Shown here piece by piece: positions 23,978 through 37,946 of a stretch of 64,000 nucleotides of DNA. The stretch covers positions 1,696,001 to 1,760,000 of the forward strand of contig CAVOXA010000001.1 of NCBI GenBank assembly GCA_963700285.1, in the 5' to 3' direction. Position 1 is the first letter of the stretch. The number at the start of each line of letters is the position of its first letter. The DNA comes from an uncultured Chloroflexia bacterium. Its GTDB lineage: Bacteria > Chloroflexota > Anaerolineae > JAAYZQ01. A program made the position numbers and the translations under genes. The notes below the pieces were generated by a model that saw nothing but the letters and a program-made list of their open reading frames with translations, was not told where the DNA came from and searched no databases.

Positions 23978-25186
23978 TCAGTAGTTGATGGTGAGCGTGT
24001 AGAGATGGTTCTGGTTCAGAGCACCTCCAGTATAAACCTGAAGGTAGTACGTACCGGCCGGCAGGTCCCGTATCCGCAGGTTCATCTGACCATCGCCTCC
24101 AGGTAGCTGGTTAATGTCTCTGTCGACTGACGACTTGTCTGTTCTACGCACCAGGACCTGGCCGTCAGCCTGATAGTTGGTGACGTCAACATTTAGCGTC
24201 GAGTTTCGAGCCAGTACGACGCGATAGTAGTCATTTGTGTCGTTGGGATAGGCACTGTAGGCCTGTCCCGGCCTCAAAGGACCGTATGCTGTAGTCATGG
24301 TATTAAACTGTTCGCAGAAAACGTTGCTCGCAGAGCACGGCGGCGCAAACTGAGGAACCTGATTGGGCTGACGTCTCAGCACTGGCAGAAAGGTACGGGA
24401 CTTTTCGGGTGCGGTCGTACCCAGTGTCACGTCGTCAACAAACAGGTTGCTGTTTGCGGAGCTGTCGGTCTCGGCACGGATATCCAGTTGGACCGTCTGA
24501 CCGGCGTAGGCGCTCAGGTCCACCACGCGTTTGACCCACGTATCCGTATTTGTTTCCGTACACAGGTAAAAGACATCCACAGCTGTAGCGTTATTGATGA
24601 CAACGCCACCAAGGTCATTTTCACAACTATCCGCAGAGGCAATCCACATCCAGAAGCCCAGAACCGCTTCTTGTGCATTCGCTGGAACAGTGACAATCTG
24701 CGCGATTGCCGAAATTTCGTCGTCAGCGCCGCCCAGCCATACGGCCCAACGGCCACCGTGCGGGGGGGTGAGGAGGACCTCCTCATCCAAGATGAGGGGC
24801 CAGCCCTGCTTGGAATACTCGTACCACGAACCATCGGGCCCATTCTCAAAACCACCGTCGACGATGCCGTTGACCGCGGCCGGGGCGCCTGCCGTTGGCC
24901 CGTCAAGCTGGGCCTGCTGGCCCGGTCCCTTTGGCAGGCTGTGAGGGTCGACCATGCCCTGCTCAGTCTCACCTACTTTCCGGCTTTCCCCAGTGGGCTC
25001 GGCAACGCTTCCAAGTAGCTGTGACGCCGCGTCGCGCAGGATGGGACCGTCGCTGTTCGCTGTGCCCTGCGGTCTGGCGCCTGTCAGGGCCTGGCTAGGC
25101 CCACGGGCAATGCCTGGTAGGCCGGCAAGGATCATCACCAGACTCAGTCCCACGCTTACTATGATGGCAAAACGCCCAAAGTTCAT
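23978..25186 (-). CDS. Secreted protein: signal peptide, jelly-roll/CBM-like domain, FLPVLRR motif, PPC-like domain
   Basis: Hydrophobic N-terminus; NGIVDGGFE...VDLSAYAGQTV...FVDDVTL; RTFLPVLRR at 24371-24397; C-terminal GPL...YPNDTNDYY...GTYYLQVY...YTLTINY. Confidence 0.75.
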   Translation of the reverse strand: MNFGRFAIIVSVGLSLVMILAGLPGIARGPSQALTGARPQGTANSDGPILRDAASQLLGSVAEPTGESRKVGETEQGMVDPHSLPKGPGQQAQLDGPTAGAPAAVNGIVDGGFENGPDGSWYEYSKQGWPLILDEEVLLTPPHGGRWAVWLGGADDEISAIAQIVTVPANAQEAVLGFWMWIASADSCENDLGGVVINNATAVDVFYLCTETNTDTWVKRVVDLSAYAGQTVQLDIRAETDSSANSNLFVDDVTLGTTAPEKSRTFLPVLRRQPNQVPQFAPPCSASNVFCEQFNTMTTAYGPLRPGQAYSAYPNDTNDYYRVVLARNSTLNVDVTNYQADGQVLVRRTDKSSVDRDINQLPGGDGQMNLRIRDLPAGTYYLQVYTGGALNQNHLYTLTINY

Positions 25187-25260
25187 GTCCTTCTCCTTTT
25201 CCTTTCTGGCTGCTGTGCTGTTGATGTCACGCTACTCTCTCTGCTCACGGAGGCCAGTTG

Positions 25261-27162
25261 TTAGGGTGGCGGCTCGGTTGGCAACCCGGGACCACCTGAT
25301 GGGGGCTTCCAGGTCAAGGTCCGTTCCTCGCTCATGGGACTCAGCGGCACCCCGGTGGGCCTGCCCTTGGCGTCCTCGCCCGTCTTTTGCATAACATGCA
25401 CCGACCACTGGAACTTGCCATCAGCCGACAGATCTTTTGCCAGGTAGTCGTGCTCGCTTAGGGTCCAGTGAGACTCCCGGGTCCACGGCGTCTCGTCCTT
25501 CCAGGTATCGGCCGGAGCAGCTGTAGGCGAGAAGGTCACCACAACCTCATAGTACACCTCTGGCGGCAATTGGCCCACAGGCTGCCAGGACAGTACGACC
25601 GTGTCCTGCGTCGTGAAAGCATCACCATCCTGCGGGCCCAGCAGGACCGGGGCGGCAAACTGCCCGCTAACCCTGGTGGGTGGCGCCGTCACGGTAGGCG
25701 CAAGCTTGGCCGGCGCTTCCGTCGCGGTTGGCGTGGGTGACTGGGTCGACGTGGGCGCAGCGGTCGTTGTCGCCGTCGGCGACGGCGTTGGCGGACTGGT
25801 GGCTGTATCGGCCGCCGTGCTTGTCGCCTGCCGAGTCGCTGGGGGCGGCGTTTCCGTGTCCTCTGTGGTGGGCGGCACGGAGGTCACCGCCGGTGAGGGC
25901 GTGGGTGCTGGGATCCTGCTCTCCACCGTAGGTGGTGCGGGTGTAGCAGACGGCCCGGGCAGGGGCGACGGGCCCGGCTCCTGGGCCGTCGCCGTCTGGG
26001 CAACGGCCGTCTGGGCCATGGCCACCGCCGTCGCCTCCGTCTGGGGAGCAGGAGGGGGCGGCCCGCCGATGCCCCCCAGGGCCATGACCAGGCCCGCCGC
26101 CAAGAGGATCAAGGCCAGGGCGCCCACCACCCATATCCCGACCGGCACCCGGCGCCTCGCCGGTTGCGGACCAACCGCGGCTCCAGCCCCGGCCGGACCC
26201 CCGGCCGGCGGCGCTTGTGCTGGCCCCCCCGGCACCGCGCCCGCGGCAGCCACGCCAGCCGCTCCCACCAGCACTGTGGGTGATTCCGGGGGCGGCGTGA
26301 CCGGCCGGGGGGGTGGGGCCTTGACCGGCTGGCCGGCCATGGCCCTCTCCAGGTCATCGGCAAAGGCCCGCACGGACGGGTAGCGATCCGCGGGCGCCTT
26401 GGCCAGGGCCTTGCCCAGCACGTATTCCACCTGCACCGGTAGATCCTGCCGCGTCCCGCGCACCGGTGGCGGTGGCTCGAAGGCGATCTTGAACATGAGG
26501 GCCGCCGTGTTATCGGCATAAAAGGGCACGCCGCCGACCAGCATCTGGTAGGCCACCACCGCCAGGCTGTACTGGTCGCTGCGGGCATCGGCAACCTGTC
26601 CCTGGGCCTGCTCTGGGGACAGATACTCGGGCGTTCCAATCACCATACCTGTGGCCGTCAGGCCCGAGTCCTGCACGGCCCGGGCGATACCAAAGTCGGT
26701 CAGGGTGACCCGTCCCGCGCGTCCGACGACGACGTTCGAGGGCTTGATGTCGCGGTGGACCAGCCCGTTGTGGTGGGCAAAGTCCAGCGCGTCGGCCAGC
26801 GGGCGCAGGATCGACATCACCTGCTTGGGCGCCAGGGGGCCCTGCCGCTGGACAAGGTTGGTCAGCGTCTCTCCGGCCAGGTACTCCATCACGTAATAGT
26901 ACCAGCCGCCCTCCTGCCCTACGTCGTAGATGTGAACGATGTTGGGGTGTTCCAGCCGGGCGGCGGCGCGCGCCTCGCGCAGGAACCGCTCGACCGAGTT
27001 CTGCTGCCAGGCCAGATGGGGGGCCAGTACCTTGACCGCCACGTGGCGGTCAAGGTTCGGGTCATAGCCCCGGTAGACGGTGGACATCCCGCCGCGGCCG
27101 ATCTCGTCCTGGATCCGGTACTTGCCCAACTGGGTTCCGACTAGTGATCTGTCATTGTTCAT
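25261..27162 (-). CDS. Ser/Thr kinase 3 (kinase-TM-linker-FN3-like extracellular domain)
   Basis: GRGGMS, HRDIKPSN, DFG, GTPEYLSPE; C-terminal FAAPVLLGP...LSWQPVGQLP...FQWSV...PLSPMSEERTLTW. Confidence 0.95.
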   Translation of the reverse strand: MNNDRSLVGTQLGKYRIQDEIGRGGMSTVYRGYDPNLDRHVAVKVLAPHLAWQQNSVERFLREARAAARLEHPNIVHIYDVGQEGGWYYYVMEYLAGETLTNLVQRQGPLAPKQVMSILRPLADALDFAHHNGLVHRDIKPSNVVVGRAGRVTLTDFGIARAVQDSGLTATGMVIGTPEYLSPEQAQGQVADARSDQYSLAVVAYQMLVGGVPFYADNTAALMFKIAFEPPPPVRGTRQDLPVQVEYVLGKALAKAPADRYPSVRAFADDLERAMAGQPVKAPPPRPVTPPPESPTVLVGAAGVAAAGAVPGGPAQAPPAGGPAGAGAAVGPQPARRRVPVGIWVVGALALILLAAGLVMALGGIGGPPPPAPQTEATAVAMAQTAVAQTATAQEPGPSPLPGPSATPAPPTVESRIPAPTPSPAVTSVPPTTEDTETPPPATRQATSTAADTATSPPTPSPTATTTAAPTSTQSPTPTATEAPAKLAPTVTAPPTRVSGQFAAPVLLGPQDGDAFTTQDTVVLSWQPVGQLPPEVYYEVVVTFSPTAAPADTWKDETPWTRESHWTLSEHDYLAKDLSADGKFQWSVHVMQKTGEDAKGRPTGVPLSPMSEERTLTWKPPSGGPGLPTEPPP

Positions 27163-27270
27163 CCTCACCTGCCTCTGTTTGGCGTCTAGGCTAACGTCGT
27201 CAAGGGTGACCGCTATGGACGCGATGCAATTCTAGTTACGTCCATGCGCGCTCAGGTCTCCGTCGTTGCT

Positions 27271-28437
27271 TCAACGCGGGATACCCTCCCACTTGAACCA
27301 CACCGGGTCGGAGTCGACCTGGCCCGGCTGCTTGCTCAGGTTGCGCAGGTTGGTCCCCCGGTCGTTCACCACCTCCATGACCCAGATCTGGCGCGTGGCT
27401 TCGCTCAGCTTGTCCGCCCGGTTGGAATAGAATGCGATCCGGCGGCCATCCGGCGACCAGGTGGGATGCTTGTCCCACTCCCAATCGTTCTGCGTCAGGC
27501 GCCGCTGGTTCTGGTCCCCGGGATCCAGCGTCTTGATATAGATCTCGTCGTTGGCGTTGCGGTTGGTCACCCAGGCCAGCCACCAGCCGTCGGCCGACAG
27601 CACCGGGTCCCAATCCTTGCGGTTGTTGACGATGATCATCTCCTTGCGGCCCGTGTCCAGCCACAGGCGGTAGATGTCCAGCGGCCTGTCGCTCACCTCC
27701 ACCCGCCACGCGCCGTCGGGCGAGGTCCGGTCGCGGACCAGGCCCCACTGGTATGCCTGCGTGTTGCACATCGGCGCCTGGTTCGAGCCGTCGCCGTCCA
27801 TGACCCAGATCTCGACCGGGCCACAGGCGTTGCCGCTGCGGGCGTCGCAGCGCTGCTGCCGCCGGAAGCCGATGACGCCCCGCTCCGCGTAGCGGCAGCG
27901 GGGCTGGGCCGGCGGCCTGGCCGTCGGCGGCGCCTCCTCCGTTTGCCCGGTCTCGGGCGCTGACGCGGTCAAAGCAGGCGCGGCGGGCGTGCCCGGTATC
28001 AGGGTGGCCGTCGGACTGACCTCGGGCGGGGTCGCCCCGGCCCCTGGCGGCGTGGCCGTGGGCGGTCGCGCCGTGTCCTGGGGTGTTGCCTCCACTGGGC
28101 CCGGATTGCCGGCCTCGGGCGAAGGGCTCGTCGGTGGCGTCTCGACCACAATGAGTACCGCCGTCCGTACCGACTCTACCGTACTCTCTACGAGCTCTTT
28201 TTCCGGTCGCTGGAGTAGCAGCAGGGCCAGTAGGGCCAGCAGCATCACGACCAGAACCGCGGCGATGCCGCCCACCAGCCCGATCAGTAACGTGGATGAC
28301 GAGCGGCGCCCGGGTCGCACCGAGGTGGGGGAGCGGCCCACCGGCTGCGCCCCCGACCCGGACGGCAGCGTCTGTCCGCACTGGAGGCAGTAATAGGCGC
28401 TCTCTGGGTTTTTCTTGCCGCATTCTGGGCAGTACAT
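27271..28437 (-). CDS. Zinc-ribbon, TM, PD40/TolB-like propeller protein
   Basis: MYCPECG...YCLQCG, TM helix, Pro/Thr linker, HPTWSPDG-type repeats. Confidence 0.85.
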   Translation of the reverse strand: MYCPECGKKNPESAYYCLQCGQTLPSGSGAQPVGRSPTSVRPGRRSSSTLLIGLVGGIAAVLVVMLLALLALLLLQRPEKELVESTVESVRTAVLIVVETPPTSPSPEAGNPGPVEATPQDTARPPTATPPGAGATPPEVSPTATLIPGTPAAPALTASAPETGQTEEAPPTARPPAQPRCRYAERGVIGFRRQQRCDARSGNACGPVEIWVMDGDGSNQAPMCNTQAYQWGLVRDRTSPDGAWRVEVSDRPLDIYRLWLDTGRKEMIIVNNRKDWDPVLSADGWWLAWVTNRNANDEIYIKTLDPGDQNQRRLTQNDWEWDKHPTWSPDGRRIAFYSNRADKLSEATRQIWVMEVVNDRGTNLRNLSKQPGQVDSDPVWFKWEGIPR

Positions 28438-28622
28438 GGTTCAGTGTCCTGAGCGAGTTATCCTCTTCAGGGATCGCGAGTAGCTGGCCGCTGGGCACCG
28501 CCGTGAACAGGCGGTGCTGGATGCTGCATCTGGATCCGGCGTGCTACCGTCTCCAGCACCGGCTCTTCAGGCCGGTGCGAGCGCCTGCTGGTAGCTGTTG
28601 GGCACAGTCCCTTCAGCCGTTT

Positions 28623-28669
28623 GTAGTGCGCGCTTCAGCGCGCTTCTGTGGCGCCAAAGCGCCTACTAC
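28623..28669. repeat. Inverted pair of GTAG-type REP-like palindromes
   Basis: GTAGTGCGCGC-TTCA-GCGCGC facing GCGCCAAAGCGCCTACTAC (reverse complement GTAGTAGGCGCTTTGGCGC). Confidence 0.55.
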
Positions 28670-28796
28670 GAACCTCTGTTCGTCTGCCACAGTAGGTTCC
28701 CGCCTGTCCCATTGCTTGACCGGTGGGTCAAGAGCCATAACGGGGCTGGAAAACCGGCCAGCCTGCCTCCAAGCCCGATTGATCGGGCGCCGCTCT

Positions 28797-28822
28797 GTAG
28801 CCGGGCGACTTTATCGCCCGGC
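28797..28822. repeat. GTAG-type REP-like palindrome
   Basis: GTAG-CCGGGCGA-CTTTA-TCGCCCGG. Confidence 0.55.
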
Positions 28823-28869
28823 GGTCTGCACCGGCTCCGATGGGCCGCCAGCCAGGCATCCAACTCGGG

Positions 28870-29083
28870 CCCCGCCCTGAGCCTCGAATCCTGAGGCTGT
28901 CCCCAGAACCTACTACACAGGGCGGGACCGGTTCATCTTTGGTTGGGCACACCACCCGGGCGGCGCCCCAACCGGGAACAGGCCTGGAGTTTTCTCTCTC
29001 TCGGCACTAGCGCCGCGTCCGTGAACCCGGCGCACCTGGCCTTTGAGGAACACACCTGGCGACCCCGCACACCGAAACCCGAT
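28870..29083 (-). ncRNA. Remnant of the DGR template RNA: TR 3' end/IMH* plus downstream structured spacer
   Basis: 29055-29082 is identical to 30083-30110 (VR1 3' end), then diverges (GGTGTGT vs GGAGAGT). It is followed by a structured stretch closing with CCCGCCCTG...CAGGGCGGG. Confidence 0.7.
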
Positions 29084-29953
29084 GAAATCCACGCCGACCT
29101 GGACCGGAAACACCAGGCTCTTCTTGGGATGCAGGACCAAGCGCAGCCGCGCCCCCAGGAACTCACGGATGGCGGCCTTCCAGTCCTGCAGTTGCGCCTT
29201 GTCGTTGCAAAAGAGGACAAAGTCGTCCATGTAGCGCAGGTAGGCGCGACACTTCAACTGGTGTTTGGCAAACGTGTCCAGCTCGTGCAAATACAGGTTG
29301 GCCCAGAACTGGCTGGTAAGGTTCCCGATCGGAAGGCAGCGCGGGCGCAGCGCCGCAAAGAGGCCCTCACCCGAGCCCGTCGTCGGGTAATCGCCCGGGA
29401 AATAGACGGGCGGGCACTCGCTGGCCTGGATCCCCGCGCCGCTGTCCAAGATCTGGTCCACCAGCCACATCGCCTCCTGGTCGGCGATGCGCCGGGCAAG
29501 CAGGCCGCGCAGGATCTGGTGGTCGACGCTCGGAAAGTACTTGACGACATCGCCATGAAAGGCGTAGCCGTACTGGCGCAGCCAGGCCTGGCACTGATCC
29601 AGCGCCCGGTGGGTGCCCTTGCCCTGGCGACAGGCAAAGCTGGTGTCGATGAAACGCGCCTCCCAGATCGGCTCGATGACCCGGCACAGCGCGTGGTGCA
29701 CGACCCGATCGCGGAAGGGCGCGGCGCTGACCAGCCTCCGCTTCGGCTCGTGGATGTAGAAACTGGTGTAGGCGCCGGGCTGGTAGCTCCCCCCGCGCAG
29801 CTCGGCTTGCAGGTCCAGCAGGTTGTGCTCCAGGTCAAACTCAAAGCTGGCCACCGCCGCCCGGTCGCGCTTGCCTCTGCGGGCGGCGCGGAAGGCCAGG
29901 TAGAGGTTCTCAAAGCTATGGATCTGTGGGTACAGGTTCTTGTACGTTTTCAT
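28913..29953 (-). CDS. DGR reverse transcriptase; C-terminal thumb replaced by TR-derived sequence (probably inactive)
   Basis: MKTYKNLY...ARRGK, EPKRRLVSAAPFRDRVVHHA, ACRQGKGTH, DVVKYFPSVDH, CLPIGNLTSQ, YLRYMDDF, GVDFIGFR, then non-RT sequence beginning CAGSPG, the same as the target C-terminus. Confidence 0.92.
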   Translation of the reverse strand: MKTYKNLYPQIHSFENLYLAFRAARRGKRDRAAVASFEFDLEHNLLDLQAELRGGSYQPGAYTSFYIHEPKRRLVSAAPFRDRVVHHALCRVIEPIWEARFIDTSFACRQGKGTHRALDQCQAWLRQYGYAFHGDVVKYFPSVDHQILRGLLARRIADQEAMWLVDQILDSGAGIQASECPPVYFPGDYPTTGSGEGLFAALRPRCLPIGNLTSQFWANLYLHELDTFAKHQLKCRAYLRYMDDFVLFCNDKAQLQDWKAAIREFLGARLRLVLHPKKSLVFPVQVGVDFIGFRCAGSPGVFLKGQVRRVHGRGASAEREKTPGLFPVGAPPGWCAQPKMNRSRPV

Positions 29954-30010
29954 AGATCATGCTTCCCCGGCACCTGAGGGGCTAAAGCTCCCAAAACCCT
30001 CCCGCGGCGA

Positions 30011-30037
30011 TCTGAGGGGGGCAAAGCCCCCCTCAGA
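30011..30037. promoter_or_regulatory. Post-VR DNA hairpin/cruciform (DGR target-recognition element)
   Basis: TCTGAGGGGGGC-AAA-GCCCCCCTCAGA, a perfect 12-bp stem about 40 bp downstream of the target-1 stop codon. Confidence 0.75.
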
Positions 30038-30075
30038 CTCCCCCTCAGAAGTCCAGGAACCAGCAATCCAGAAGC

Positions 30076-31605
30076 TCACTCTCCTGGCGACCCCGCACAC
30101 CGAAACCCGAGACTGATGTAGCTGTAACCCGGGTTGTGGCTGTACGCGGTCCGCCGCGCGGACGTAGTACGCATCGTTGAGCCACGAACCGCCACGCAGC
30201 ACCTTATACGAACCGCTGGCCGGCCCCGGCGGGTTGCGGTAGGGCGAGACGCCGTAGTAGCTGCTGCTGTACCAATCGTTGACCCATTCCCAGACGTTGC
30301 CGGCCATGTCCAGCGCGCCGTAGGGGCTGGCGCCGCTGGGGTAGCTGCCCACCCGGCTGGTGTCGCCCACGCAGCCGCTGTAGTTCGCCCGGCTGCAGTC
30401 CGGCGCCTGGTTCCCCCAGGGGTAGGTCCGCGCGCCGGTGCCGCGGGCCGCCTTCTCCCACTCGGCCTCGGTGGGCAGGCGCTTGCCGGCCCAGGTGCAG
30501 TAGGCCCGCGCCCCGTACCAGGTCACTTCGATGGCCGGGTGGTCGCCGTAGCCGGCATCGGCCTGCCAGACCCCGCCGGCCTGGTGGATGCGCACATCCG
30601 GATCGTCTGTGTCCAGCCAGGTGTCCCCCCCTCCTGCTGGTTGCCCCTGGCATTGAGAAATTCAGCGTACTGAGCGTTGGTCACCTCGTACCGGTCGATG
30701 GCGTAGGCGTCAAGGTACACGGTGTGCACCGGCTGCTCGTCGCTGTCGCCGTCGTTGCTGCCCATGGTGAACTCGCCGGCGGGCACGGAGACCATGTCGG
30801 CGGGCGGAGTCCGCTGTTCCGTGACAAAATCCCAAACCGGCCCGGCGGTGGTCGCCCCCCGCGAATCCCTGGCCACCACCTGCCAGTCGTAGTGCGCACC
30901 CTCGCTCAACCCGCCGGGGTCGCAACTGGCGCTGGCCACGTCGTTGCACACGAGCGCATCGCGTATCCGGCGTGCTGTCCCGGCCTCCAGGTAGACGTCA
31001 TAGGTCACCGCATCGCCGTCGGGATCGCCGCCGCTCCAGCTCAGCACCACGTCGACGCTCTGATCCGTGGCGCCGTCGGCCGGCGATGGAGCCCAGGGGC
31101 TGGTGGGCGGCTGGTTCGGGCGGTCCCTGCGGATCGTGGGCAGGTGTGCGCGGTGGATCGTGGGAAAGGTGGCGCGCAGGGTGTAGGAAGACGTGTTATT
31201 GAAACCCGTGGGCGTGTAGATATAGATGTAATAGTCCCCGGGATCCCCGGCGTAGTCCAGGTGGTATGGCGGCTTCCAGTCGCGGGCCACCGTATTGCCC
31301 GTCGATTGGTAGTACAGCAGCAACTGTACATCTTGACCGGTATGGTTGCTCAGGTCCACGGCGATCGGTCCGGCCCTGTAGAGATGGATGGAAAAGTAAT
31401 CCTTCTCGTCGTTGGGATAGCCATAGTAGGTCCGGTGCGAGCGCAGCGGGCCGTTGGCCTGCTGGTAGCTGTTGTTGGGCTCCACCTCCCAGGGGCCCTC
31501 AAAGTAGGCCAGGCTGGCCGCCAGGGACGCCGCCGGATAGGCCGGCACCCACCCCAGGGCCAGCAGTATGGTCATGGCCAGAATCGTTATCCCCGTTGGT
31601 TTCAT
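30076..31605 (-). CDS. DGR target 1: signal peptide, PPC-like, HLPTIRR, Ig/FN3-like, FGE-sulfatase (CLec) domain; two apparent frameshifts (~30600, ~30146)
   Basis: ORFs 30523-31617 and 29957-30595 join up: EPNNSY...[68 protein letters not shown]. Corrected end reads ...[11 protein letters not shown]. Confidence 0.88.
30079..30205 (-). repeat. Variable region VR1
   Basis: KVLRGGSW...GFRCA segment rich in NNC codons (AAC, TAC, AGC, CAC, ATC); differs from VR2 mostly at codon positions 1-2. Confidence 0.78.
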
Positions 31606-31660
31606 TGGCTGGCTCACTCCTCCTGTGAATTGCTATCGCCCTGTCTCACCGTGTCAGAAA

Positions 31661-31684
31661 CCTGCCCTGAGCGCCGTCGAAGGG
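31661..31684. repeat. Short dispersed palindromic repeat (CCCTTCGAC...CTCAGGGCAGG type)
   Basis: Minus strand CCCTTCGACGGCGCTCAGGGCAGG is present downstream of VR2 but absent from the aligned VR1 flank. Confidence 0.55.
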
Positions 31685-31708
31685 ACCGGGAAGCAAAAGT
31701 CCAGAAGC

Positions 31709-33212
31709 TCACTCTTCTGGCGACTGCGCACACCGAAACCCGACGATGTTGTAGGTGCCGTCCAGGCTGTGGTGGATGCGGTTCGCCGCGCGGAGGACGT
31801 TCGCTTCGGCGAGCCACGCACCGCTACGCAGCACCTTAAACGACCCGCTGGCTGGTCCGGGCGGGTCGCGGTAAGGCGAGATGCTGTAGTAGTTGTCTTT
31901 GTACCAATCGTTGACCCATTCCCAGACGTTGCCGGCCATATCCAGCGCGCCGTAGGGGCTGGCACCGCTGGGGTAGCTGCCCACCCGCGTCGTGTCGCCC
32001 ACGCAGCCCTTCAGGTTCGTCCGGCCGCAGTCCGGGGCCTGGTCCCCCCAGGGGTAGGTCCGGGCGTTGGTCCCGCGGGCCGCCTTCTCCCACTCGGCCT
32101 CGGTGGGCAGGCGCTTGCCGGCCCAGGTGCAATAGTCGCGGGCGTCGTACCAGGACACCCAGATGACCGGATAGTCGGCGTAGGACGGGTTGCCATAGTA
32201 GGAGGAGCGCGTATCGGATCCGTAGCTGGTGGGCGGATCGCAGGCGCCGGCAGCCACGCACTGGGCATATTGGACGTTGGTCACCTCGTACCGGTCGATG
32301 GCGTAGGCGTCCAAGGTACACGGTGTGCACCGGCTGCTCGTCGCTGTCGCCGTCTTTGCTGCCCATGGTGAACTCGCCGGCGGGCACAGAGACCATGCCG
32401 GCGGGCGGGCCGCTTGTTACCGTGACAAAATCCCAAACCGGCCCGGTGGTGGTCGCCCCCCGCGAATCCCTGGCCACCACCTGCCAGTCGTAGTGCGCAC
32501 CCTCACCCAGCGCACCGGGGTCGCAACTGGCGCTGGCCACGTCGTTGCACATGAGCGTATCCGGCGTGCTGTCCCCAGCCTCCAGGTAGACGTCATAGGT
32601 CACCGCATCGCCATCGGGATCGCCGCCGCTCCAGCTCAGCTTCACATTCACGCTCTGATCCGTGGCGCCGTCAGCCGGCGAGGGAGCCCAGGGGCTGGTG
32701 GGCGGCTGGTTCGGGCGGTCCCTGCGGATCGTGGGCAGGTGTGCGCGGTGGATCATGGGAAAGGTGGCGCGCAGGGTGTAGGCGGACCTGTTATTGAAGC
32801 CCGTGGGTGTAGTAGATATAGATGTAATAGGTCCCCGGCATCCCCGGTGTAGTCCAGGTGGTAGGGCGCTTCCAGATCAGCGGTCACCCGGTTGGCCGTC
32901 GATTGGTAGAACAACTGCAATTGTACGTGCTGACCGGTGTGGTTGGTCAGGTCGACGGCGATCGGCGCCAGCCCGGTAGAGATGGATGGAAAAGTAGTCC
33001 TTCTCGTCGTTGGGATAGCCATAGTAGGTCCGGTGCGAGCGCAGCGGGCCGTTGGCCTGCTGGTAGCTGTTGTTGGGCTCGCTCTCCCACGGCCCCTCAA
33101 AGTAGGCCTGGCTGGCCGCCAGGGGCGCCTGGGACGCCGCCGGATAGGCCGGCACCCACCCCAGGGCCAGCAGTATGGTCATGGCCAGAATCGTTATCCC
33201 CATGGGCTTCAT
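31709..33212 (-). CDS. DGR target 2 (tandem paralog of target 1); several apparent frameshifts
   Basis: ORFs 32877-33224, 32753-33100, 31836-32756 and 31709-32314 join into the same architecture; ends KVLRSGAW...[14 protein letters not shown]. Confidence 0.88.
31712..31837 (-). repeat. Variable region VR2
   Basis: Codon-for-codon colinear with VR1 (ATC CAC CAC AGC CTG GAC GGC ACC TAC AAC ATC GTC GGG TTT CGG). Confidence 0.72.
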
Positions 33213-33261
33213 TGGCTGGCTCACTCCTCCAGTTGTGCGCTATCGCCCCGCTGGGCAGTGC

Positions 33262-35130
33262 CTACGGCGGCGCCACCGTGGCCCCGCCACCCCCGCCACC
33301 CCCGCCTCCTCCCGAGCGCTTCCAGGTCAGCAAGCGCACGGCGCTGGCCGGACTGAGGGGCGTGCCCCTGGGCTTGCCCTGGGCGTCCTCCCCCGTCTTG
33401 AGCATCGCCCGCACCGACCAGCGGAACTCCCCATTCGTCGACAGGTCCGGCAGGTACTTGTGTTCGCTCATGGTCCAGCTCGTCCCTTTGGTCCAGGGCA
33501 CGTCGTCGGTCCAGGTGTCCCCTCCGTGGGGGTAGGTCACCGTGACGGCATAGAAGCCGTCGGCCGGCAACTGGCCCACCGGCGCCCATTCCAGGACGAT
33601 GGGCTCGTCCCCTGAAAACGCCTGGCCGCCGGCCGGGCCCCGCAGCACCGGTGCCGGGAACTCGTTGCCCGTCGACCGGGGTGGCTGCGTCCGCGTCGGC
33701 GGAGGCCGGGTCGACGGCGGCCGGGGCGCCGTTGCCGTTGGCGGTGCCGCTCTCGTCGCGGTGGCCGCCTGGCTAACCGTCGGCCTGGGCGTGCGCGTCG
33801 GCGCTAGCGTGCGGGTTGGTACTGCCATCTGGGTCGCCGTGTCGGCGGGCCGCTGGGTTGGCGCGTCGGTGGGTGGCGTCGTCGACGTTGGCTGTATCGG
33901 CGTTGGTGTTGGCTGGACGCGCGCCGGCGTCGCGCTCGGCGCCACGGCGGGCAGCGACGTCGGGTTCGGCGCGGCCCGCAGCGTTGCCGTCGGCTCCGGG
34001 GCCGGCCGGGTCGCCGTCGGCCTCAGCGTGGCCGTCTCGCCCGGCGGGTTCAGGGCCACTTCCAAGAGCTCGGTGGGCCGGCCCTGCTCCGTCCGTCCAT
34101 CTCTGCCGTTTCCCGTCATCAGGGCCAGCAGTCCCAGCAGGAGCAGCAGCGCCACGGCTACGCCGGCCAGGAACCAGGGCAGTTTTTTGCGATCCAGGCC
34201 CTCCCCCTGGGTCGGGAGAGGATCTGCCCTGCGACCCATCAACCTCGTCGGCGGCAGCGCGGCCGCACGGGCGGCGACGCCCAGGCCCGCAGGGCGGAGG
34301 GCAGCCTGGGCCAGTGCCCGGCGCATCTCCGCCGCTGACTGCCAGCGGTCCTGCTTTTGCAGGGCCATGGCCTTCAGCACCACGTCCTCCACGGCCGCGG
34401 ATACCTGGGCCCCGGGGTTGGCTTCCCGCAGGCCCGGCAGCGGCGCCCCGGCGCCCCGGTTCAGGGATTCCACCGGCGCCACCCCCGTCAGCAGATAGTA
34501 GAGCGTGCCGCCGACGCCATAGAGGTCGGTCCGGGCGTCGGTCTGCCCCCGCGTGGCGTACTGCTCCAGCGGCGCGAACCCCGGCGACAGGGCCAGCGCG
34601 CCGGTCATCGTGTGCTGGCCCTGTACGTACTCCTTGGCGATGCCAAAGTCGACCAGCATCGCCTTGCTGGCCTGTCCCTTGGGCCCGGCCGGCGTGACCT
34701 TGATGTTGGCCGGCTTTACGTCGCGGTGGATCACCGCCGGATCCTGGCTGTGCAGGTAGTCCAGCGCGTCCAAAACCTGGTCGGCCCAGGCCAGCGCCTG
34801 CGCCGAAGGCGCCGGCCCCTGCTGCTCCACCCGATCGGCCAGGTCGAGTCCCTCGACATAGTCCATGACCAGGTAGTAGCGCCCTGTCTGGGCGAAATAG
34901 TCGGTCACCCGCGGCAGGTGCGGGTGGTCGAGGTGGGCCAGGAAGCGCGCCTCGCGCTGGAACTGCTGCTGCGCCCTGGGCGAGACGTCCAGCGTCTCCT
35001 TGACGGCGCACAGCTTGTCCAGGCGCTGGTCGCGGGCCAGGTACACGGCCCCCATGCCCCCCTGGCCCAGCAGCCGCTGGATCTGGTACCGGTTTTGCAG
35101 GATGGTGCCTGCGGGTAGTAGGCTGGTCAT
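33262..35130 (-). CDS. Ser/Thr kinase 4 (kinase-TM-linker-FN3-like domain, poly-Gly tail)
   Basis: GQGGMG, CAVKE, HRDVKPAN, DFG, SPGFAPLEQ; C-terminal FPAPVLRGP...LEWAPVGQLP...FRWSV...PLSPASAVRLLTW. Confidence 0.95.
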   Translation of the reverse strand: MTSLLPAGTILQNRYQIQRLLGQGGMGAVYLARDQRLDKLCAVKETLDVSPRAQQQFQREARFLAHLDHPHLPRVTDYFAQTGRYYLVMDYVEGLDLADRVEQQGPAPSAQALAWADQVLDALDYLHSQDPAVIHRDVKPANIKVTPAGPKGQASKAMLVDFGIAKEYVQGQHTMTGALALSPGFAPLEQYATRGQTDARTDLYGVGGTLYYLLTGVAPVESLNRGAGAPLPGLREANPGAQVSAAVEDVVLKAMALQKQDRWQSAAEMRRALAQAALRPAGLGVAARAAALPPTRLMGRRADPLPTQGEGLDRKKLPWFLAGVAVALLLLLGLLALMTGNGRDGRTEQGRPTELLEVALNPPGETATLRPTATRPAPEPTATLRAAPNPTSLPAVAPSATPARVQPTPTPIQPTSTTPPTDAPTQRPADTATQMAVPTRTLAPTRTPRPTVSQAATATRAAPPTATAPRPPSTRPPPTRTQPPRSTGNEFPAPVLRGPAGGQAFSGDEPIVLEWAPVGQLPADGFYAVTVTYPHGGDTWTDDVPWTKGTSWTMSEHKYLPDLSTNGEFRWSVRAMLKTGEDAQGKPRGTPLSPASAVRLLTWKRSGGGGGGGGGGATVAPP

Positions 35131-35189
35131 GGTAACTGACACTGAACCTTTCCGAGCGAGATGATGGTAGACGTAGTCTTTCCCCACTC

Positions 35190-36188
35190 CTAGTACTTGG
35201 CTTCCAGGGTATAGGGCTTGGTCAGATCGTCCCCAGCGAAGCGGTAGACCCGGATGTAGTGTTTTCCGCCTGACTCGGGTTTGAACTTGATAGACTCTCT
35301 TTCCCCTTTCCCTGCTGTACTCGATCCGGCGACCAGTTCCCTGTTGGCATCATATACCCACAAGTCCAGATCCAACGGCTCTGGTACTGTCAACGTGAGT
35401 TCGACTCGCTGGTTCTGAACAACGTTGATGTAGAAGTAGTCGCTCCTCTTGTCCTCCCCCCCTTGGCAGTACCCGACATAGGGCACATCTCGAGGTAGCG
35501 GCCCACACGCGGCAGTAAGCGTGTGGTTCGTAGCGCACGTAAAGTACGTTCGCATGACTGCCGGTACGAAGATGCTTTGCTTGACGACCACCTTGGGCGG
35601 CGTTTGATCACTGATCTCCAACGGTGTATTATCACCAACTCCTATTCTCGCTGTGTTGTCAAGTATTGTCTCGCCTACCGGCAGATCATCCAACCCGACG
35701 ACCTGCACCACGAACTTGAGCAGCACCGGCTCCGTCCCAACTTCGCCGTTCCACGTAAGCGTACCGGCGGGTGATTCTGTAAAGTCCTCGGACTGTTGGA
35801 AAGCGTAGAAGTTGCCCAGCACGTCGGTCACGGTAACACTGCCCATGAGCACGCCCGTATTGACGAGTTTGACGGTATATTCAACCAATGAACCCGGCGT
35901 TACTTGTTCGCCGCCTTTGTTGCTGGTTTTCGTTGAACTGCTCAGATTGGGATCTCGCCCGAAATCTGTACCCATCGCGATCAAGTCTCCACCCTTGGTG
36001 GCCGCAGTAGTGTATACCATGAGTGTGATTGCCTGACCTCGAGGAGTGGACATCTGCCCAGTATCCAGGTGTGTGGGTTGACTGGTACCTGCTGCCATCG
36101 CTGGAACTGCAGCGAAGCAAGCCACCACCAAAAAAGCCAGGATGTATTCCGCCAGGCTCCTGTTCAGATGGTCTCCTTTGCTTTTCAT
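35190..36188 (-). CDS. Secreted protein: signal peptide, DUF11-like Ig domain, FVPAVMR motif, PPC-like domain
   Basis: PNLSSSTK...PGSLVEYTVKLVNTG...VTDVL; SIFVPAVMR at 35550-35576; DYFYI...DLDLWVYD...HYIRVY...YTLEAKY. Confidence 0.78.
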   Translation of the reverse strand: MKSKGDHLNRSLAEYILAFLVVACFAAVPAMAAGTSQPTHLDTGQMSTPRGQAITLMVYTTAATKGGDLIAMGTDFGRDPNLSSSTKTSNKGGEQVTPGSLVEYTVKLVNTGVLMGSVTVTDVLGNFYAFQQSEDFTESPAGTLTWNGEVGTEPVLLKFVVQVVGLDDLPVGETILDNTARIGVGDNTPLEISDQTPPKVVVKQSIFVPAVMRTYFTCATNHTLTAACGPLPRDVPYVGYCQGGEDKRSDYFYINVVQNQRVELTLTVPEPLDLDLWVYDANRELVAGSSTAGKGERESIKFKPESGGKHYIRVYRFAGDDLTKPYTLEAKY

Positions 36189-36265
36189 TATGGCCCTCCG
36201 TCTTACTCGGAATTTCTTGCGCAACTCGATGGGAAGTGAGAGGTTCTAGTTCCTCAAGCAAGTCC

Positions 36266-37946
36266 TTATGGCCCCGGTGGGGCTTTGTTTTCCTCACTAT
36301 CTTTGCCATTGCCCCCACCACTAGTGTACTTGAACTTGCGTTTTGCTGCCCATTCGCCGGCTATCGTTGGCAGAACAGCTCGTTGTCAGCGCAGCCTTTG
36401 TGCACTACCACCACTGACCAGTAGTAGGTATCTGTCCCATACTTCTTGATGGCGGGTGCCTCCTGCTCAACTCAACCTGAGTTCGTACGCTGTTGTCGGT
36501 GGATGGCCCCCCGCCGTGGACGCCTAGGGGAAGACTGTCCTCGTCCTCGGCCAGATACGAAGGTCAAAGTAGTAGTCATCGGGCAGCGGCTCATCGTGCC
36601 CATCGCCACGCGAAGATCGGCGCGTACCCTCCAGCTCTGAATCGTTCGTCGGTTCTAGCAGCCCCGCAGCCGGGAACGGTACGTCGGCGTACTTGTCGGC
36701 TGGCGGTCCGCGCGTCGTGGGCTGCTGGGGCTCTTGTCGGCTGGCTTTGTGGCCGCAGTTGGTTCTGCGACCGTGGTCGGAATTAAGGTCGCTGTTGGCT
36801 CTCCCGGTGCCAGCTGCCTCTAGACCCGGCGAGCCTACCGGCGCCGGTGGGCACCGGCGTGTCTCGGCCAGTTGACGCGCCCTGGTCAACGGGTACCTTC
36901 AGCGGCGAGTGTAGCCGTGGGCGGGACGCCTGGACCTCCGGTACGTCGGATCGCCGGCAGCTGGCGCCCCGGTTTCGCCGCCTCGCGTAAAGAGGGTAGT
37001 AGATACCCAGGAGGATCAGCAGACCGCCAGCAAGACCCCCGCCACGGCCGCCATGGCCCAGGGCGCTCTGGATCAACGGCCGTTCCTGCGGCGCCGCCAC
37101 CACCGTCGGCACCCTGGACTCCCCGTCCGGGGCGCTGACAATCACCACGCCGATGTTGTCGCTGCCACCCCGCGAATTGGCCAGGTCGATGAGCAGGTCC
37201 GCCGCCTCCTCGGGCGGGTTCCGCCGCACCAGCTCCGCGATCTCTGGTCCTCCACGTGCCCGGTCAGGCCGTCGGTGCACAGGAAGAGGCTCTCACCCTC
37301 GTTCAGCGCTCCCTTCGAATATGTCCACTTCGACCGCAGGCTTGGCGCCCAGGGCGCGGGTGACCACGTTGCGCTGGGGGTGCTTTTTGGCCTGCTCGGG
37401 CGTCAGCAGCCCGGCCCGCATCTGCTCCTCCACCCAGGAGTGGTCGGTGGTGATCCGCTGGATCCCCTGCGGGCCGATGACATAGGCCCGGCTGTCGCCC
37501 ACGTTGGCCACGTACACCCTGCGCCCCAGGATGACGGCCGCTACCAGCGTGGTGCCCATGCCCGACTTGGATGGGTCGGACTGGGCCCAATTGTAGATCT
37601 TTTGGTTGGCGGCCCGAAAGGCGCGCGTCAGGCTGGTGGGAATGTCGTGGACGGCGTCGGGGTAATACTCCTGGCGGACCACCTCCACCGCGGCGCGGCT
37701 GGCCACCTCGCCCGCGCTGTGACCCCCCATCCCATCGGCCGCCATGTATAGCGCGCCCTTGCGCGCCAGCTCGTCCGGCTCCGGTGGGATGTAGTAATCG
37801 ACATAATCCTCGTTGTGGGGCCGGGAACGGCCGACGTCGGTCTTGGCGGCGACAGTCAGGTTCAGCGCCGGCTGACTGCCGGCCGGCCTGGGGGATTTGG
37901 CAGGTTCGGGCTTTGCCGGGGCCTGCGCCCCGCGGTTGCTGCTCAT
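36266..37946 (-). CDS. PP2C (Stp1/PrpC-type) phosphatase 1 with TM and FN3-like extracellular domain; multiple frameshifts
   Basis: TDVGRSRPHNED, ADGMGGH, GMGTT, NVGDSRAY, GGSDNI. Manual reading of 36266-36680 gives FPAAGLLEP...LPDDYYFDLRIW...YYWSVVVV...RKFKY...PPGP*. Confidence 0.85.

Follow-up and report, generated by a model that had tools for sequence, protein, structure and literature searches.

The locus examined here raises the question of whether a DGR supplies a receptor kinase with a hypervariable, separately encoded binding subunit. Within the 64,000-nucleotide stretch of DNA analysed (the window), a Ser/Thr kinase gene (kinase 4) is followed by two genes whose products end in a CLec domain (targets 2 and 1) and by a reverse transcriptase (RT) gene, and the original prediction took this arrangement for an active antibody-like split sensor. 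The following features were identified.

35190..36188, minus strand: upstream neighbour, predicted secreted protein with a C-terminal PPC domain (domain search, hydropathy)
33262..35130, minus strand: kinase 4, Hanks-type Ser/Thr kinase of 622 aa (Pfam Pkinase, motifs, hydropathy)
33289..33660, minus strand: C-terminal domain of kinase 4, predicted extracellular, Ig/fn3-like as a lead only (Atlas leads PF25788/fn3)
31709..33224, minus strand: target 2, with predicted signal peptide, PPC-like domain, LPxIR motif, fn3-like domain and FGE/CLec domain (Pfam, hydropathy)
31716..31834, minus strand: variable repeat VR2 with IMH, mismatched to the TR stub at 3 non-adenine sites in 28 nt
30076..31617, minus strand: target 1, with the same architecture as target 2 (Pfam, hydropathy)
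31162-31509: PPC domain of target 1
30084..30202, minus strand: variable repeat VR1 with IMH, which matches the TR stub perfectly over 28 nt and differs at the one TR adenine that survives
30011..30037, minus strand: GC-rich hairpin downstream of VR1 (z = -3.1, 0/200 shuffles)
29084..29953, minus strand: DGR RT, codons 1-290 only (YMDD kept, relatives, PDB match)
29055..29083, minus strand: TR stub, the 3'-terminal 29 nt (IMH* side) of the template repeat, which continue the RT frame after the join TTC|ATC
28870..29054, minus strand: spacer after the TR, also conserved in intact relatives, found once in the genome and without Rfam match
23978..27168, minus strand: second kinase-PPC pair, without CLec or DGR, comprising a kinase with a kinase-4-type ectodomain (25261-27168) and then a secreted PPC protein (23978-25186)

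A receptor-type kinase followed by two predicted secreted targets

Kinase 4, target 2, target 1 and the RT are co-oriented on the minus strand with gaps of 37, 91 and 122 nt, as originally described, and kinase 4 and both targets are likely to be co-transcribed. They lie in an Anaerolineae-type Ser/Thr kinase island, which extends from 20178 to beyond 60000 and includes at least seven Pkinase genes, kinase 4 among them, together with at least three PP2C and at least five FHA genes. A pair similar to the second kinase-PPC pair of this island is present in another genome (G017:C125).

Kinase 4 consists of a kinase domain, one TM helix (aa 320-338), a Pro/Thr linker and a C-terminal ectodomain, as judged by hydropathy, and all of its catalytic motifs were found (G-loop, AVK, HRDVKPAN, DFG and APLE). 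It is thus predicted to be a receptor-type Hanks Ser/Thr kinase, presumably active and with its C-terminal domain outside the cell. The Atlas leads for this ectodomain score 0.86-0.88, below 0.9, and no solved structure matched it by sequence (best E = 0.6). In genome searches, its subfamily was found in 6/23 genomes of this order and in 0/400 other genomes of the phylum.

The kinase and the CLec domain do not share a frame. Kinase 4 stops at 33262, and an RBS-like GGAGGA, a start codon and a signal-like segment belong to target 2 itself, so that the two do not form a kinase-CLec fusion. Both targets, which are paralogues with 89% DNA identity, carry an FGE/CLec domain (Pfam PF03781) at the C-terminal end, and hydropathy shows one hydrophobic segment at the start of each and none further along. 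These data support the prediction that the CLec domains belong to separate proteins, which are probably secreted. A class-wide search with the target N-terminus matched 46/401 genomes, mostly through a single domain, and so did a search of longer proteins among the best 120 of 308 matches. Proteins with fn3 plus FGE were common among the matches of both searches, and the signal peptide-PPC-fn3-CLec architecture was not seen among the 175 related RT loci examined.

A DGR cassette with the RT end, Avd and nearly all of the TR missing

The identification of the RT as that of a DGR was supported. Its nearest relatives (63-82% identity) belong to cassettes of the order target-RT-Avd-TR whose TR/VR pairs are adenine-specific, and its best PDB match is 8ub7 (328 aa; E = 8e-49, versus 4e-17 for a group II intron RT), which we take to be the bRT of Bordetella phage BPP-1. 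A group II intron or retron RT was rejected, since scores fell far below the cut-offs (TIGR04416, 138.5 versus 300; NF038233, 33.8 versus 235) and 8ub7 fits better; no Rfam match was found in 27000-37000. In a tree from which L112 and L085 were omitted as split hits, and in which no starred group includes the window RT, the closest RT (81-82%) sits behind a kinase-TM-CLec fusion (support 93/89). A 10-residue insertion in the RT was considered as a sign of decay and discarded, because the intact loci L089 and L096 carry it too.

The RT retains the catalytic YMDD and lacks ~65-70 C-terminal residues. It stops where the last ~60 residues of 8ub7, presumably the thumb, begin. After codon 290 the frame continues into the 29-nt TR stub and then the spacer, reading FIG at the junction versus FCG in 28/28 close RTs, and beyond this point the sequence lines up with the TR end and the spacer found in relatives. 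The search for intact related cassettes was successful, with the order target-RT-Avd-TR. In 12/12 intact relatives examined, 712-786 bp separate the positions corresponding to the two sides of the junction, and this interval contains the end of the RT, Avd and the TR. The RT C-terminus and Avd were present in 77/80 related loci with room downstream, a count taken from best hits only and hence biased to complete RTs.

An assembly artefact was rejected as the source of the fusion because a 167-nt short-read contig (29022-29188, 1 mismatch) bridges the RT-TR junction; this is one contig of depth ~3 from a single study, and it may stem from the assembly's own source. Among the sequencing runs listed as containing this DNA none is of RNA. 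The three DNA runs consist of low-depth contigs with 6-7% of words, and VR1 and VR2 are unspanned by the listed pieces. Neither Avd, which relatives carry directly after the RT, nor a whole TR was found at the locus, and VR blast, a scan for AAC runs and spacer blast found no TR matching VR1 or VR2 in the assembly. A match on C15 was discarded as the missing TR, since it contains a stop codon and few AAC runs and represents the 3' part of a third target gene. The sole Avd match (PF22296) in the genome lies on C10, with a different TR. As the assembly is 89% complete, a TR could lie on a missing piece; intact variants of two broken DGR loci have been found in long reads (Doré et al., PMC10907252).

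Traces of past diversification

The repeats themselves record adenine-directed change. VR1 and VR2 differ from each other at 17/30 TR-adenine columns versus 7/65 others (p = 5e-6), a strong bias rather than a confinement; as the locus has lost its own TR, the columns were taken from the TRs of relatives, and one column at a frame break was left out. At the one TR adenine that survives in the stub, both repeats differ from it. Differences between the VRs fall on codon positions 1-2 in 22/26 cases, versus 17/32 upstream (p = 0.013). Among relatives, the TR could be delimited in 11/15 attempts, with 12-26 mismatches to its own VR at A and 0-2 elsewhere. The concentration of differences on TR-adenine columns indicates that the targets were diversified in the past. 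The proposed hypervariability of the CLec domains thus has support for the past, not for the present.

The hairpin downstream of VR1 is also present in the closest relative, and no stable hairpin was found downstream of VR2 (z = 0.3). Passages of one report (PMC3240598) describe a hairpin of this kind as required in DGR target recognition.

Frozen, decaying or still diversified targets

We consider it probable that a DGR cassette at this locus lost the RT end, Avd and nearly all of the TR, and that the two predicted secreted CLec targets are now frozen surface binders; it is the loss of these parts that makes frozen CLec tips likely. In the history that would best account for the locus, a secreted PPC-domain gene, similar to those found behind ectodomain genes of the kinase 4 type in this family, would first have gained an fn3-CLec module and a target-RT-Avd-TR cassette. 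The target may then have duplicated together with its 5' UTR, and adenine-directed retrohoming would have diversified both CLec tips. Target 1, whose IMH is perfect and which still has the hairpin, was probably the last target to be active. Finally, a deletion of ~750 bp would have joined RT codon 290 to the 3' end of the TR, in register with a short GG.TT.CG likeness between FCGFR, a motif of the RT, and IGFR, a motif of the TR. The order of these events, the size of the deletion and the role of the short homology are inferred.

A different outcome, in which decay extends to the whole block, with both targets and the RT being pseudogenes and the kinase alone functional, seems somewhat unlikely. 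It overlaps with the reading of frozen targets, as the DGR is dead in both. In the assembly, the frame of target 2 is broken four times (near 32967, 32831, 32811 and 32313), and that of target 1 near 30620 and 30140, with a further, compensated pair of breaks near 30982-30963. Six breaks in 3.06 kb, against a background of 18 in 104 kb (0.17 per kb), represent a ~10-fold excess (Poisson p = 2e-5), which may mean that the targets no longer work and are in decay. Consistent with decay, the RT motif GLPIGN reads CLPIGN, a G to C change at a position that is G in 93/95 relatives and A in 2, and VR2 has drifted at non-adenine sites and is without a hairpin. However, the assembly contains indel errors, since the break at 32313, the sole target break covered, is missing from a short-read contig (with 3 other differences), and another such contig restores the frame of the PP2C gene broken at 37244. 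Near-identical duplicates are expected to polish badly, a frame change was seen in 14/93 orthologous genes of this assembly, and neither target has an in-frame stop when read across its breaks. That the targets are still being diversified, either in trans by an intact C10 DGR or in cis in a subpopulation whose cassette is intact, is very unlikely. Such a process could draw on the intact RT-Avd-TR cassette at G000:C10:227-228.8 kb and on the IMH and hairpin retained by VR1, and both trans activity and intact variants of broken loci have been described (PMC10907252). The C10 TR, however, differs at non-adenine sites from VR1 (15/48) and VR2 (11/36), versus 1/62 for its own VR, on which grounds its action in trans was rejected, and the assembly contains the spacer of this DGR lineage just once.

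A recurring ectodomain-PPC gene pair

The targets could nevertheless serve kinase 4 with a specificity that would now be fixed, the DGR being dead. In such a split sensor they would dock via their PPC-like domain on the kinase 4 ectodomain, and the CLec tip would form the ligand-binding part of the kinase. This arrangement appears unlikely. Genes of the ectodomain subfamily number 10, one at a contig end, and 6 of the 9 evaluable are directly followed by a co-oriented PPC-domain gene; of the remainder, one has a convergent PPC gene two genes away and two have none. By contrast, 0/20 control loci with a distant ectodomain type have an adjoining PPC-domain gene. Within this genome, 6/7 PPC-like genes adjoin its three ectodomain genes, as found with a profile seeded from other genomes. 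The closest RT lies, as noted, behind a kinase fusion, and 3/26 close-clade targets are kinase fusions. Against these points, just 3/10 ectodomain genes are kinases, the co-oriented pair comes from three genomes of two genera in one family, and 8/20 PPC-like matches have no ectodomain gene in the available DNA. Neither the targets' PPC-like domain nor the kinase 4 ectodomain occurs at any of the 175 RT loci, so that the kinase-DGR combination is 0/175, and the target 2 CLec is closest to those of free secreted targets (67% identity). Conservation of the kinase-target linkage, whose absence the original prediction named as refuting it, was not seen in DGR relatives, a co-oriented upstream kinase being found at 0/6 secreted targets with at least 2 kb upstream in the RT clade of the window.

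Since the TR, Avd and RT C-terminus are deleted, the active antibody-like sensor of the original prediction is unsupported. The recurring ectodomain-PPC pair keeps a split sensor possible in a form other than a kinase-DGR link, and it argues for more than a chance neighbourhood of the targets with kinase 4. The two domains are small, ~120 (ectodomain) and ~110 (PPC) residues. It is doubtful, though conceivable from these gene pairs, that in this Anaerolineae-type family interchangeable secreted proteins dock on receptors by a plug and socket made up of a PPC domain and a membrane-anchored Ig/fn3-like domain, and that the DGR captured a secreted partner here. The kinase would then have acquired a hypermutated subunit for binding, encoded apart from it as in an antibody-like split sensor, whose specificity was later locked when the template was deleted.

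In the same clade, L089 has an FHA/kinase cluster downstream of its target and L192 a divergent kinase-like gene. L090 was considered as a naturally split kinase and CLec, but reads as a frame-broken fusion, because its two frames overlap within the Pro/Thr linker and a signal segment is lacking from the CLec part.

The well-resolved dead DGR is a modest result, as secreted targets, two-target cassettes and kinase-CLec fusions have all been published; the useful lead lies in the recurrence of the ectodomain-PPC pair. Binding between the two domains, if it occurs, would explain how orphan secreted proteins of Chloroflexota kinase islands connect to receptors. It would also demonstrate that receptor diversification by a DGR can proceed via a separate subunit, a design of which no description was found in the literature searched.

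Comparison with known systems

Category 'b' FGE/CLec-target DGRs, with Treponema denticola TvpA as exemplar, and cassettes with two targets, which make up 50/372 DGRs, have been described (Wu et al. 2018, PMC5758913). The window targets share with them a C-terminal FGE-type CLec carrying the VR (TvpA, PDB 2y3c, E = 5e-14), the presence of two targets per cassette and, as in DGRs with surface-exposed targets such as Legionella LdtA, a predicted exported product. They differ in their N-terminal PPC-like and fn3-like domains; the cassette, ordered target-RT-Avd-TR in relatives, is here deleted and inside a kinase island.

The 'antigen sensors' of multicellular bacteria (Doré et al. 2024, PMC10907252; Kaur et al. 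2020, PMC7159879), a dataset that includes Anaerolineae RTs, likewise have CLec/FGE targets, some predicted to be secreted, in genomes with several DGR loci, some broken. They centre on STAND NTPases and vWA-MoxR, neither of which was found in the window targets, and the words PPC and Pkinase are absent from those supplementary files of the two papers that were searched.

As with cyanobacterial Ser/Thr kinase-CLec targets (Vallota-Eastman et al. 2020, PMC7517822), a Hanks-type kinase and a DGR-diversified CLec share one neighbourhood. The window also shares its RT lineage with L087, one of the kinase-TM-CLec fusions of its RT clade (L087, L090, L190 and L222); unlike in these fusions, its kinase and CLec are separate genes and kinase 4 has an ectodomain of its own. 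The BPP-1 DGR (bRT-Avd-TR-spacer) differs in gene order and in an RT that includes the last ~60 residues of 8ub7, before which the window RT ends, and has in common with this locus the IMH and hairpin, here after VR1, and a conserved spacer after the TR.

A truncated DGR cassette lies directly behind kinase 4

As the original prediction had described, kinase 4, both targets and the RT are co-oriented with short gaps; all lie on the minus strand, with intergenic distances of 37, 91 and 122 nt.

Genes of the window locus
35130–33262, minus strand: kinase 4, catalytic motifs intact
33224–31709, minus strand: target 2, FGE/CLec target
31617–30076, minus strand: target 1, FGE/CLec target
Start 29953, minus strand: RT, a 346-codon ORF that is RT up to codon 290 only

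Kinase 4 has a single TM helix (residues 320–338) followed by a C-terminal domain of ~120 residues that is predicted to be extracellular (hereafter the ectodomain). Around it, a large island of Ser/Thr kinase, PP2C and FHA genes spans 20178–64000, with several genes frame-broken; a count that is not exhaustive gives at least 7 Pkinase, at least 3 PP2C and at least 5 FHA genes. The targets share 89% DNA identity, and each begins with a hydrophobic segment, read as a predicted signal peptide from hydropathy rather than a dedicated predictor. PPC-like, fn3-like and FGE/CLec domains follow in that order. The PPC-like assignment comes from profiles purpose-built for this analysis, and the Pfam PPC model matches neither target. 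An xLPx(I/V)xR-type motif, possibly a candidate Chloroflexota sorting or processing signal, occurs at 31140–31150 and 32725–32745 and in genes for secreted proteins at 35190 and 23978; it is common in relatives' secreted targets, frequently immediately ahead of the displayed domain. A 56–62 nt stretch at 28616–28677, with many matches in three other genomes (G009, G012, G019) and in many short-read contigs, is probably a dispersed palindromic repeat.

The RT scored 138.5 with the group II intron RT model (cut-off 300) and 33.8 with the retron model (cut-off 235), and its best PDB match was 8ub7, which we take to be the Bordetella phage bRT. Among 160 related RT loci fetched (the best 80 of 309 and the best 80 of 522 confirmed relatives), target-RT-Avd-TR was the order in most close loci; TRs could be delimited in 11 of 15 relatives tried, and differed from their VRs at 12–26 adenines and 0–2 other bases. 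These scores and cassettes bear out the assignment of the RT to a DGR.

Past codon 290, the window ORF aligns to the 3' end of relatives' TRs and the spacer behind them. The same two points are 712–786 bp apart in 12/12 intact relatives examined, a span that holds the RT C-terminus, Avd and TR. At the junction, TTC|ATC, an RT motif and the TR end resemble each other over a short stretch in the same register; the deletion may thus have been guided by homology. Because a 167-nt short-read contig (run X3) covers the junction (29022–29188, one mismatch), the junction is more than a feature of the assembly, with the proviso that this is a single contig that may share its source with the assembly. 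At the junction the ORF carries FIG where 28/28 close RTs examined have FCG. The part that is missing is presumably the thumb. In the Bordetella system, catalysis needs Avd, and the thumb touches the template-primer duplex (bioRxiv 10.1101/2023.10.23.563531). The DGR locus is real, but dead.

The post-TR spacer (28870–29054) is conserved in blocks in 12 relatives (TTCCTC..GGCCAGGTGCG, TTCCCGGTTG, CAACCAAAGA, TGTGTGGTAG) and has no match in Rfam; it is a candidate for a structured DGR RNA in this RT clade.

The targets were diversified in the past

VR1 and VR2 differ at 17/30 TR-adenine columns versus 7/65 other columns (p = 5e-6). We counted a column as TR-adenine when half or more of the TRs from 14 relatives have A there, and omitted one that coincides with a frame break. 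Codon positions 1–2 hold 22/26 of the VR differences versus 17/32 upstream (p = 0.013), and at the sole adenine remaining in the TR stub both VRs are different. Past diversification of the targets is thus well supported by sequence comparison. After the stub adenine, VR1 is identical to the stub for 28 nt and VR2 has three mismatches; a strong hairpin lies 3' of VR1 (z = -3.1) and none 3' of VR2 (z = 0.3). Such hairpins are required for target recognition (PMC3240598). Of the two, target 1 was therefore probably the one that stayed active longest. The hypervariability originally proposed for these proteins accordingly holds for their past, but the deletion has probably ended it since.

An ectodomain-PPC pair recurs within the order

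Ten genes in 6/23 genomes of this order encode the kinase 4 ectodomain subfamily, and none was found in 400 other genomes of the phylum searched. In 6 of the 9 evaluable cases a co-oriented PPC-like gene follows directly: two pairs lie in the window, one elsewhere in the same genome (G000), two in G001 and one in G017. The remainder comprise one gene in G015 with a convergent PPC gene two genes off, two in G021 without one, and one in G013 at a contig end. At loci of a more distant ectodomain type, a PPC-like gene was present in 0/20 in the DNA fetched, several loci being cut by contig ends. A PPC-like profile built from 15 seed domains of other genomes matched 7 genes in G000, 6 of them beside its three ectodomain genes, as are 3 of the 5 Pfam PPC genes there; one seed of these profiles (L051, from the unpublished genome G397) is the sole support of no claim. 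From the PPC side, an ectodomain gene lay near 12/20 matches, a count that is partly circular since that profile included ectodomain neighbours, and was absent from seven other PPC-match loci fetched.

Kinase linkage is not conserved among DGR relatives

We classed the targets of 26 loci (RT identity at least 63%, target ORF present): 10 were secreted (N-termini judged by eye), 3 were kinase fusions, 7 were cut or unclassifiable, and 6 were caspase, NTPase, TIR or HEAT proteins. Six of the secreted targets had 2 kb or more of sequence ahead of them, and none of these six was preceded by a co-oriented kinase, so that the expected conservation of the kinase-target linkage did not materialise; an FHA/kinase cluster lies downstream in one locus (L089), and a divergent kinase-like gene slightly below the Pfam cut-off in another (L192). 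Neither a PPC-like domain nor the kinase 4 ectodomain exceeded threshold in any of 175 RT loci, many of them short. The closest RT (81–82%; L031, also listed as L087, on G017:C11) lies behind a kinase-TM-CLec fusion, and the hairpin between target and RT is the same as in the window; its tree support is 93/89, not starred. That RT (L031:1–460) breaks off as well, at about residue 257, where unrelated sequence takes over. This RT lineage freely swaps target N-termini, in agreement with Wu et al. (PMC5758913).

Related loci in other genomes
L089:7345–17085: undamaged DGR whose RT belongs to the same clade; secreted fn3-CLec target, then directly FHA-ABC transporter gene, lipoprotein-like gene and a gene for a Ser/Thr kinase; closest living counterpart to the window locus
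L286:8120–9360 (G019:C389) and L282 (G001:C9): orphan genes for secreted CLec proteins, in genomes of the same family

The C-terminal end of the L286 product resembles those of the window targets; its locus has no RT match.

The link between the DGR and kinase 4 amounts to adjacency and a suggestive domain pairing. Of the proposal that the DGR is wired to kinase 4, a real DGR next to the kinase and this pairing remain, but the DGR is dead and relatives do not conserve the kinase link.

Frozen specificity, decay and docking

The targets are probably secreted binders that share an operon with kinase 4. Targets and kinase would be expressed together, the target tips would have been diversified via mutagenic retrohoming, and their specificity would then have been fixed by the deletion that removed the RT C-terminus, Avd and most of the TR. 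That they are still being diversified is highly unlikely. Intact variants of broken DGR loci do occur in long reads elsewhere (Doré et al., PMC10907252, section 8), and the sequencing runs searched here span neither VR1 nor VR2, but no TR for VR1 or VR2 was found in the 7.05-Mb, 89%-complete assembly by VR blast, a scan for AAC runs ahead of the GFR motif, or spacer blast. The sole Avd match in the assembly belongs to a NACHT-CLec DGR on contig C10, whose TR is ruled out as template by non-adenine mismatches (15/48 to VR1, 11/36 to VR2). Full decay of the targets, which overlaps with the frozen-binder explanation, we regard as somewhat unlikely. Target 2 has four frame breaks; target 1 has two, along with a pair that cancel each other out. 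With 18 breaks in 104 kb as background (14/93 orthologous genes affected), the six in 3.06 kb are ten times the expected number (p = 2e-5). On the other side, the break at 32313 in target 2 is missing from a short-read contig, itself with three other differences, and a short-read contig mends the frame of a nearby PP2C gene (break near 37244). The breaks may be polishing errors in duplicated sequence or true decay.

The strongest form of the original prediction is a split sensor in which the targets would dock on kinase 4 via the PPC domain. The pairing at six of nine evaluable ectodomain genes versus none of 20 distant-type loci makes docking plausible, but it comes from few independent genomes and kinases make up only 3/10 of the ectodomain genes; the full split sensor is improbable. 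Frozen secreted binders remain the preferred reading.

Other DGR-related loci of the same genome
L004, G000:C10:224000–228860: NACHT-HEAT-CLec target, RT, Avd and TR; apparently intact DGR
L005, G000:C14:609800–614500: second DGR, RT (~115 codons) joined directly to its own TR 3' end
L001, G000:C15:143380–143700: orphaned 3' end of another related target, the third, which keeps VR, stop and a hairpin remnant; a short TR-like stub follows
L002, G000:C10:1150500–1152900: kinase-TM-linker-CLec fusion with VR-like end, broken near the VR

In L004, which has a close counterpart in G001 (L032), the VR differs at 10/21 TR adenines and 1/62 other bases, with one extra base. The L005 RT is flanked by NACHT-CLec-like and KAP-NTPase-CLec-like targets (labelled from motifs by eye), and an RT-to-TR deletion is present in 2/3 DGR RT loci of the genome. 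L002 has no RT nearby; its kinase is similar to that of the DGR target in L031.

Comparison with known systems

In the literature searched, which included few subscription papers, we found neither a PPC-fn3-CLec target nor an ectodomain-PPC pair described. Kinase-CLec targets are known from Vallota-Eastman et al. 2020 (PMC7517822) and FGS-domain fusions from Kaur et al. 2020 (PMC7159879). Doré et al. 2024 (PMC10907252) include Anaerolineae RTs, broken loci and targets that are secreted; Wu et al. 2018 (PMC5758913) describe cassettes with two targets and FGE/CLec targets exposed at the surface (TvpA, LdtA). The window locus is a decayed DGR that resembles published systems in its FGE/CLec targets and its two-target cassette.
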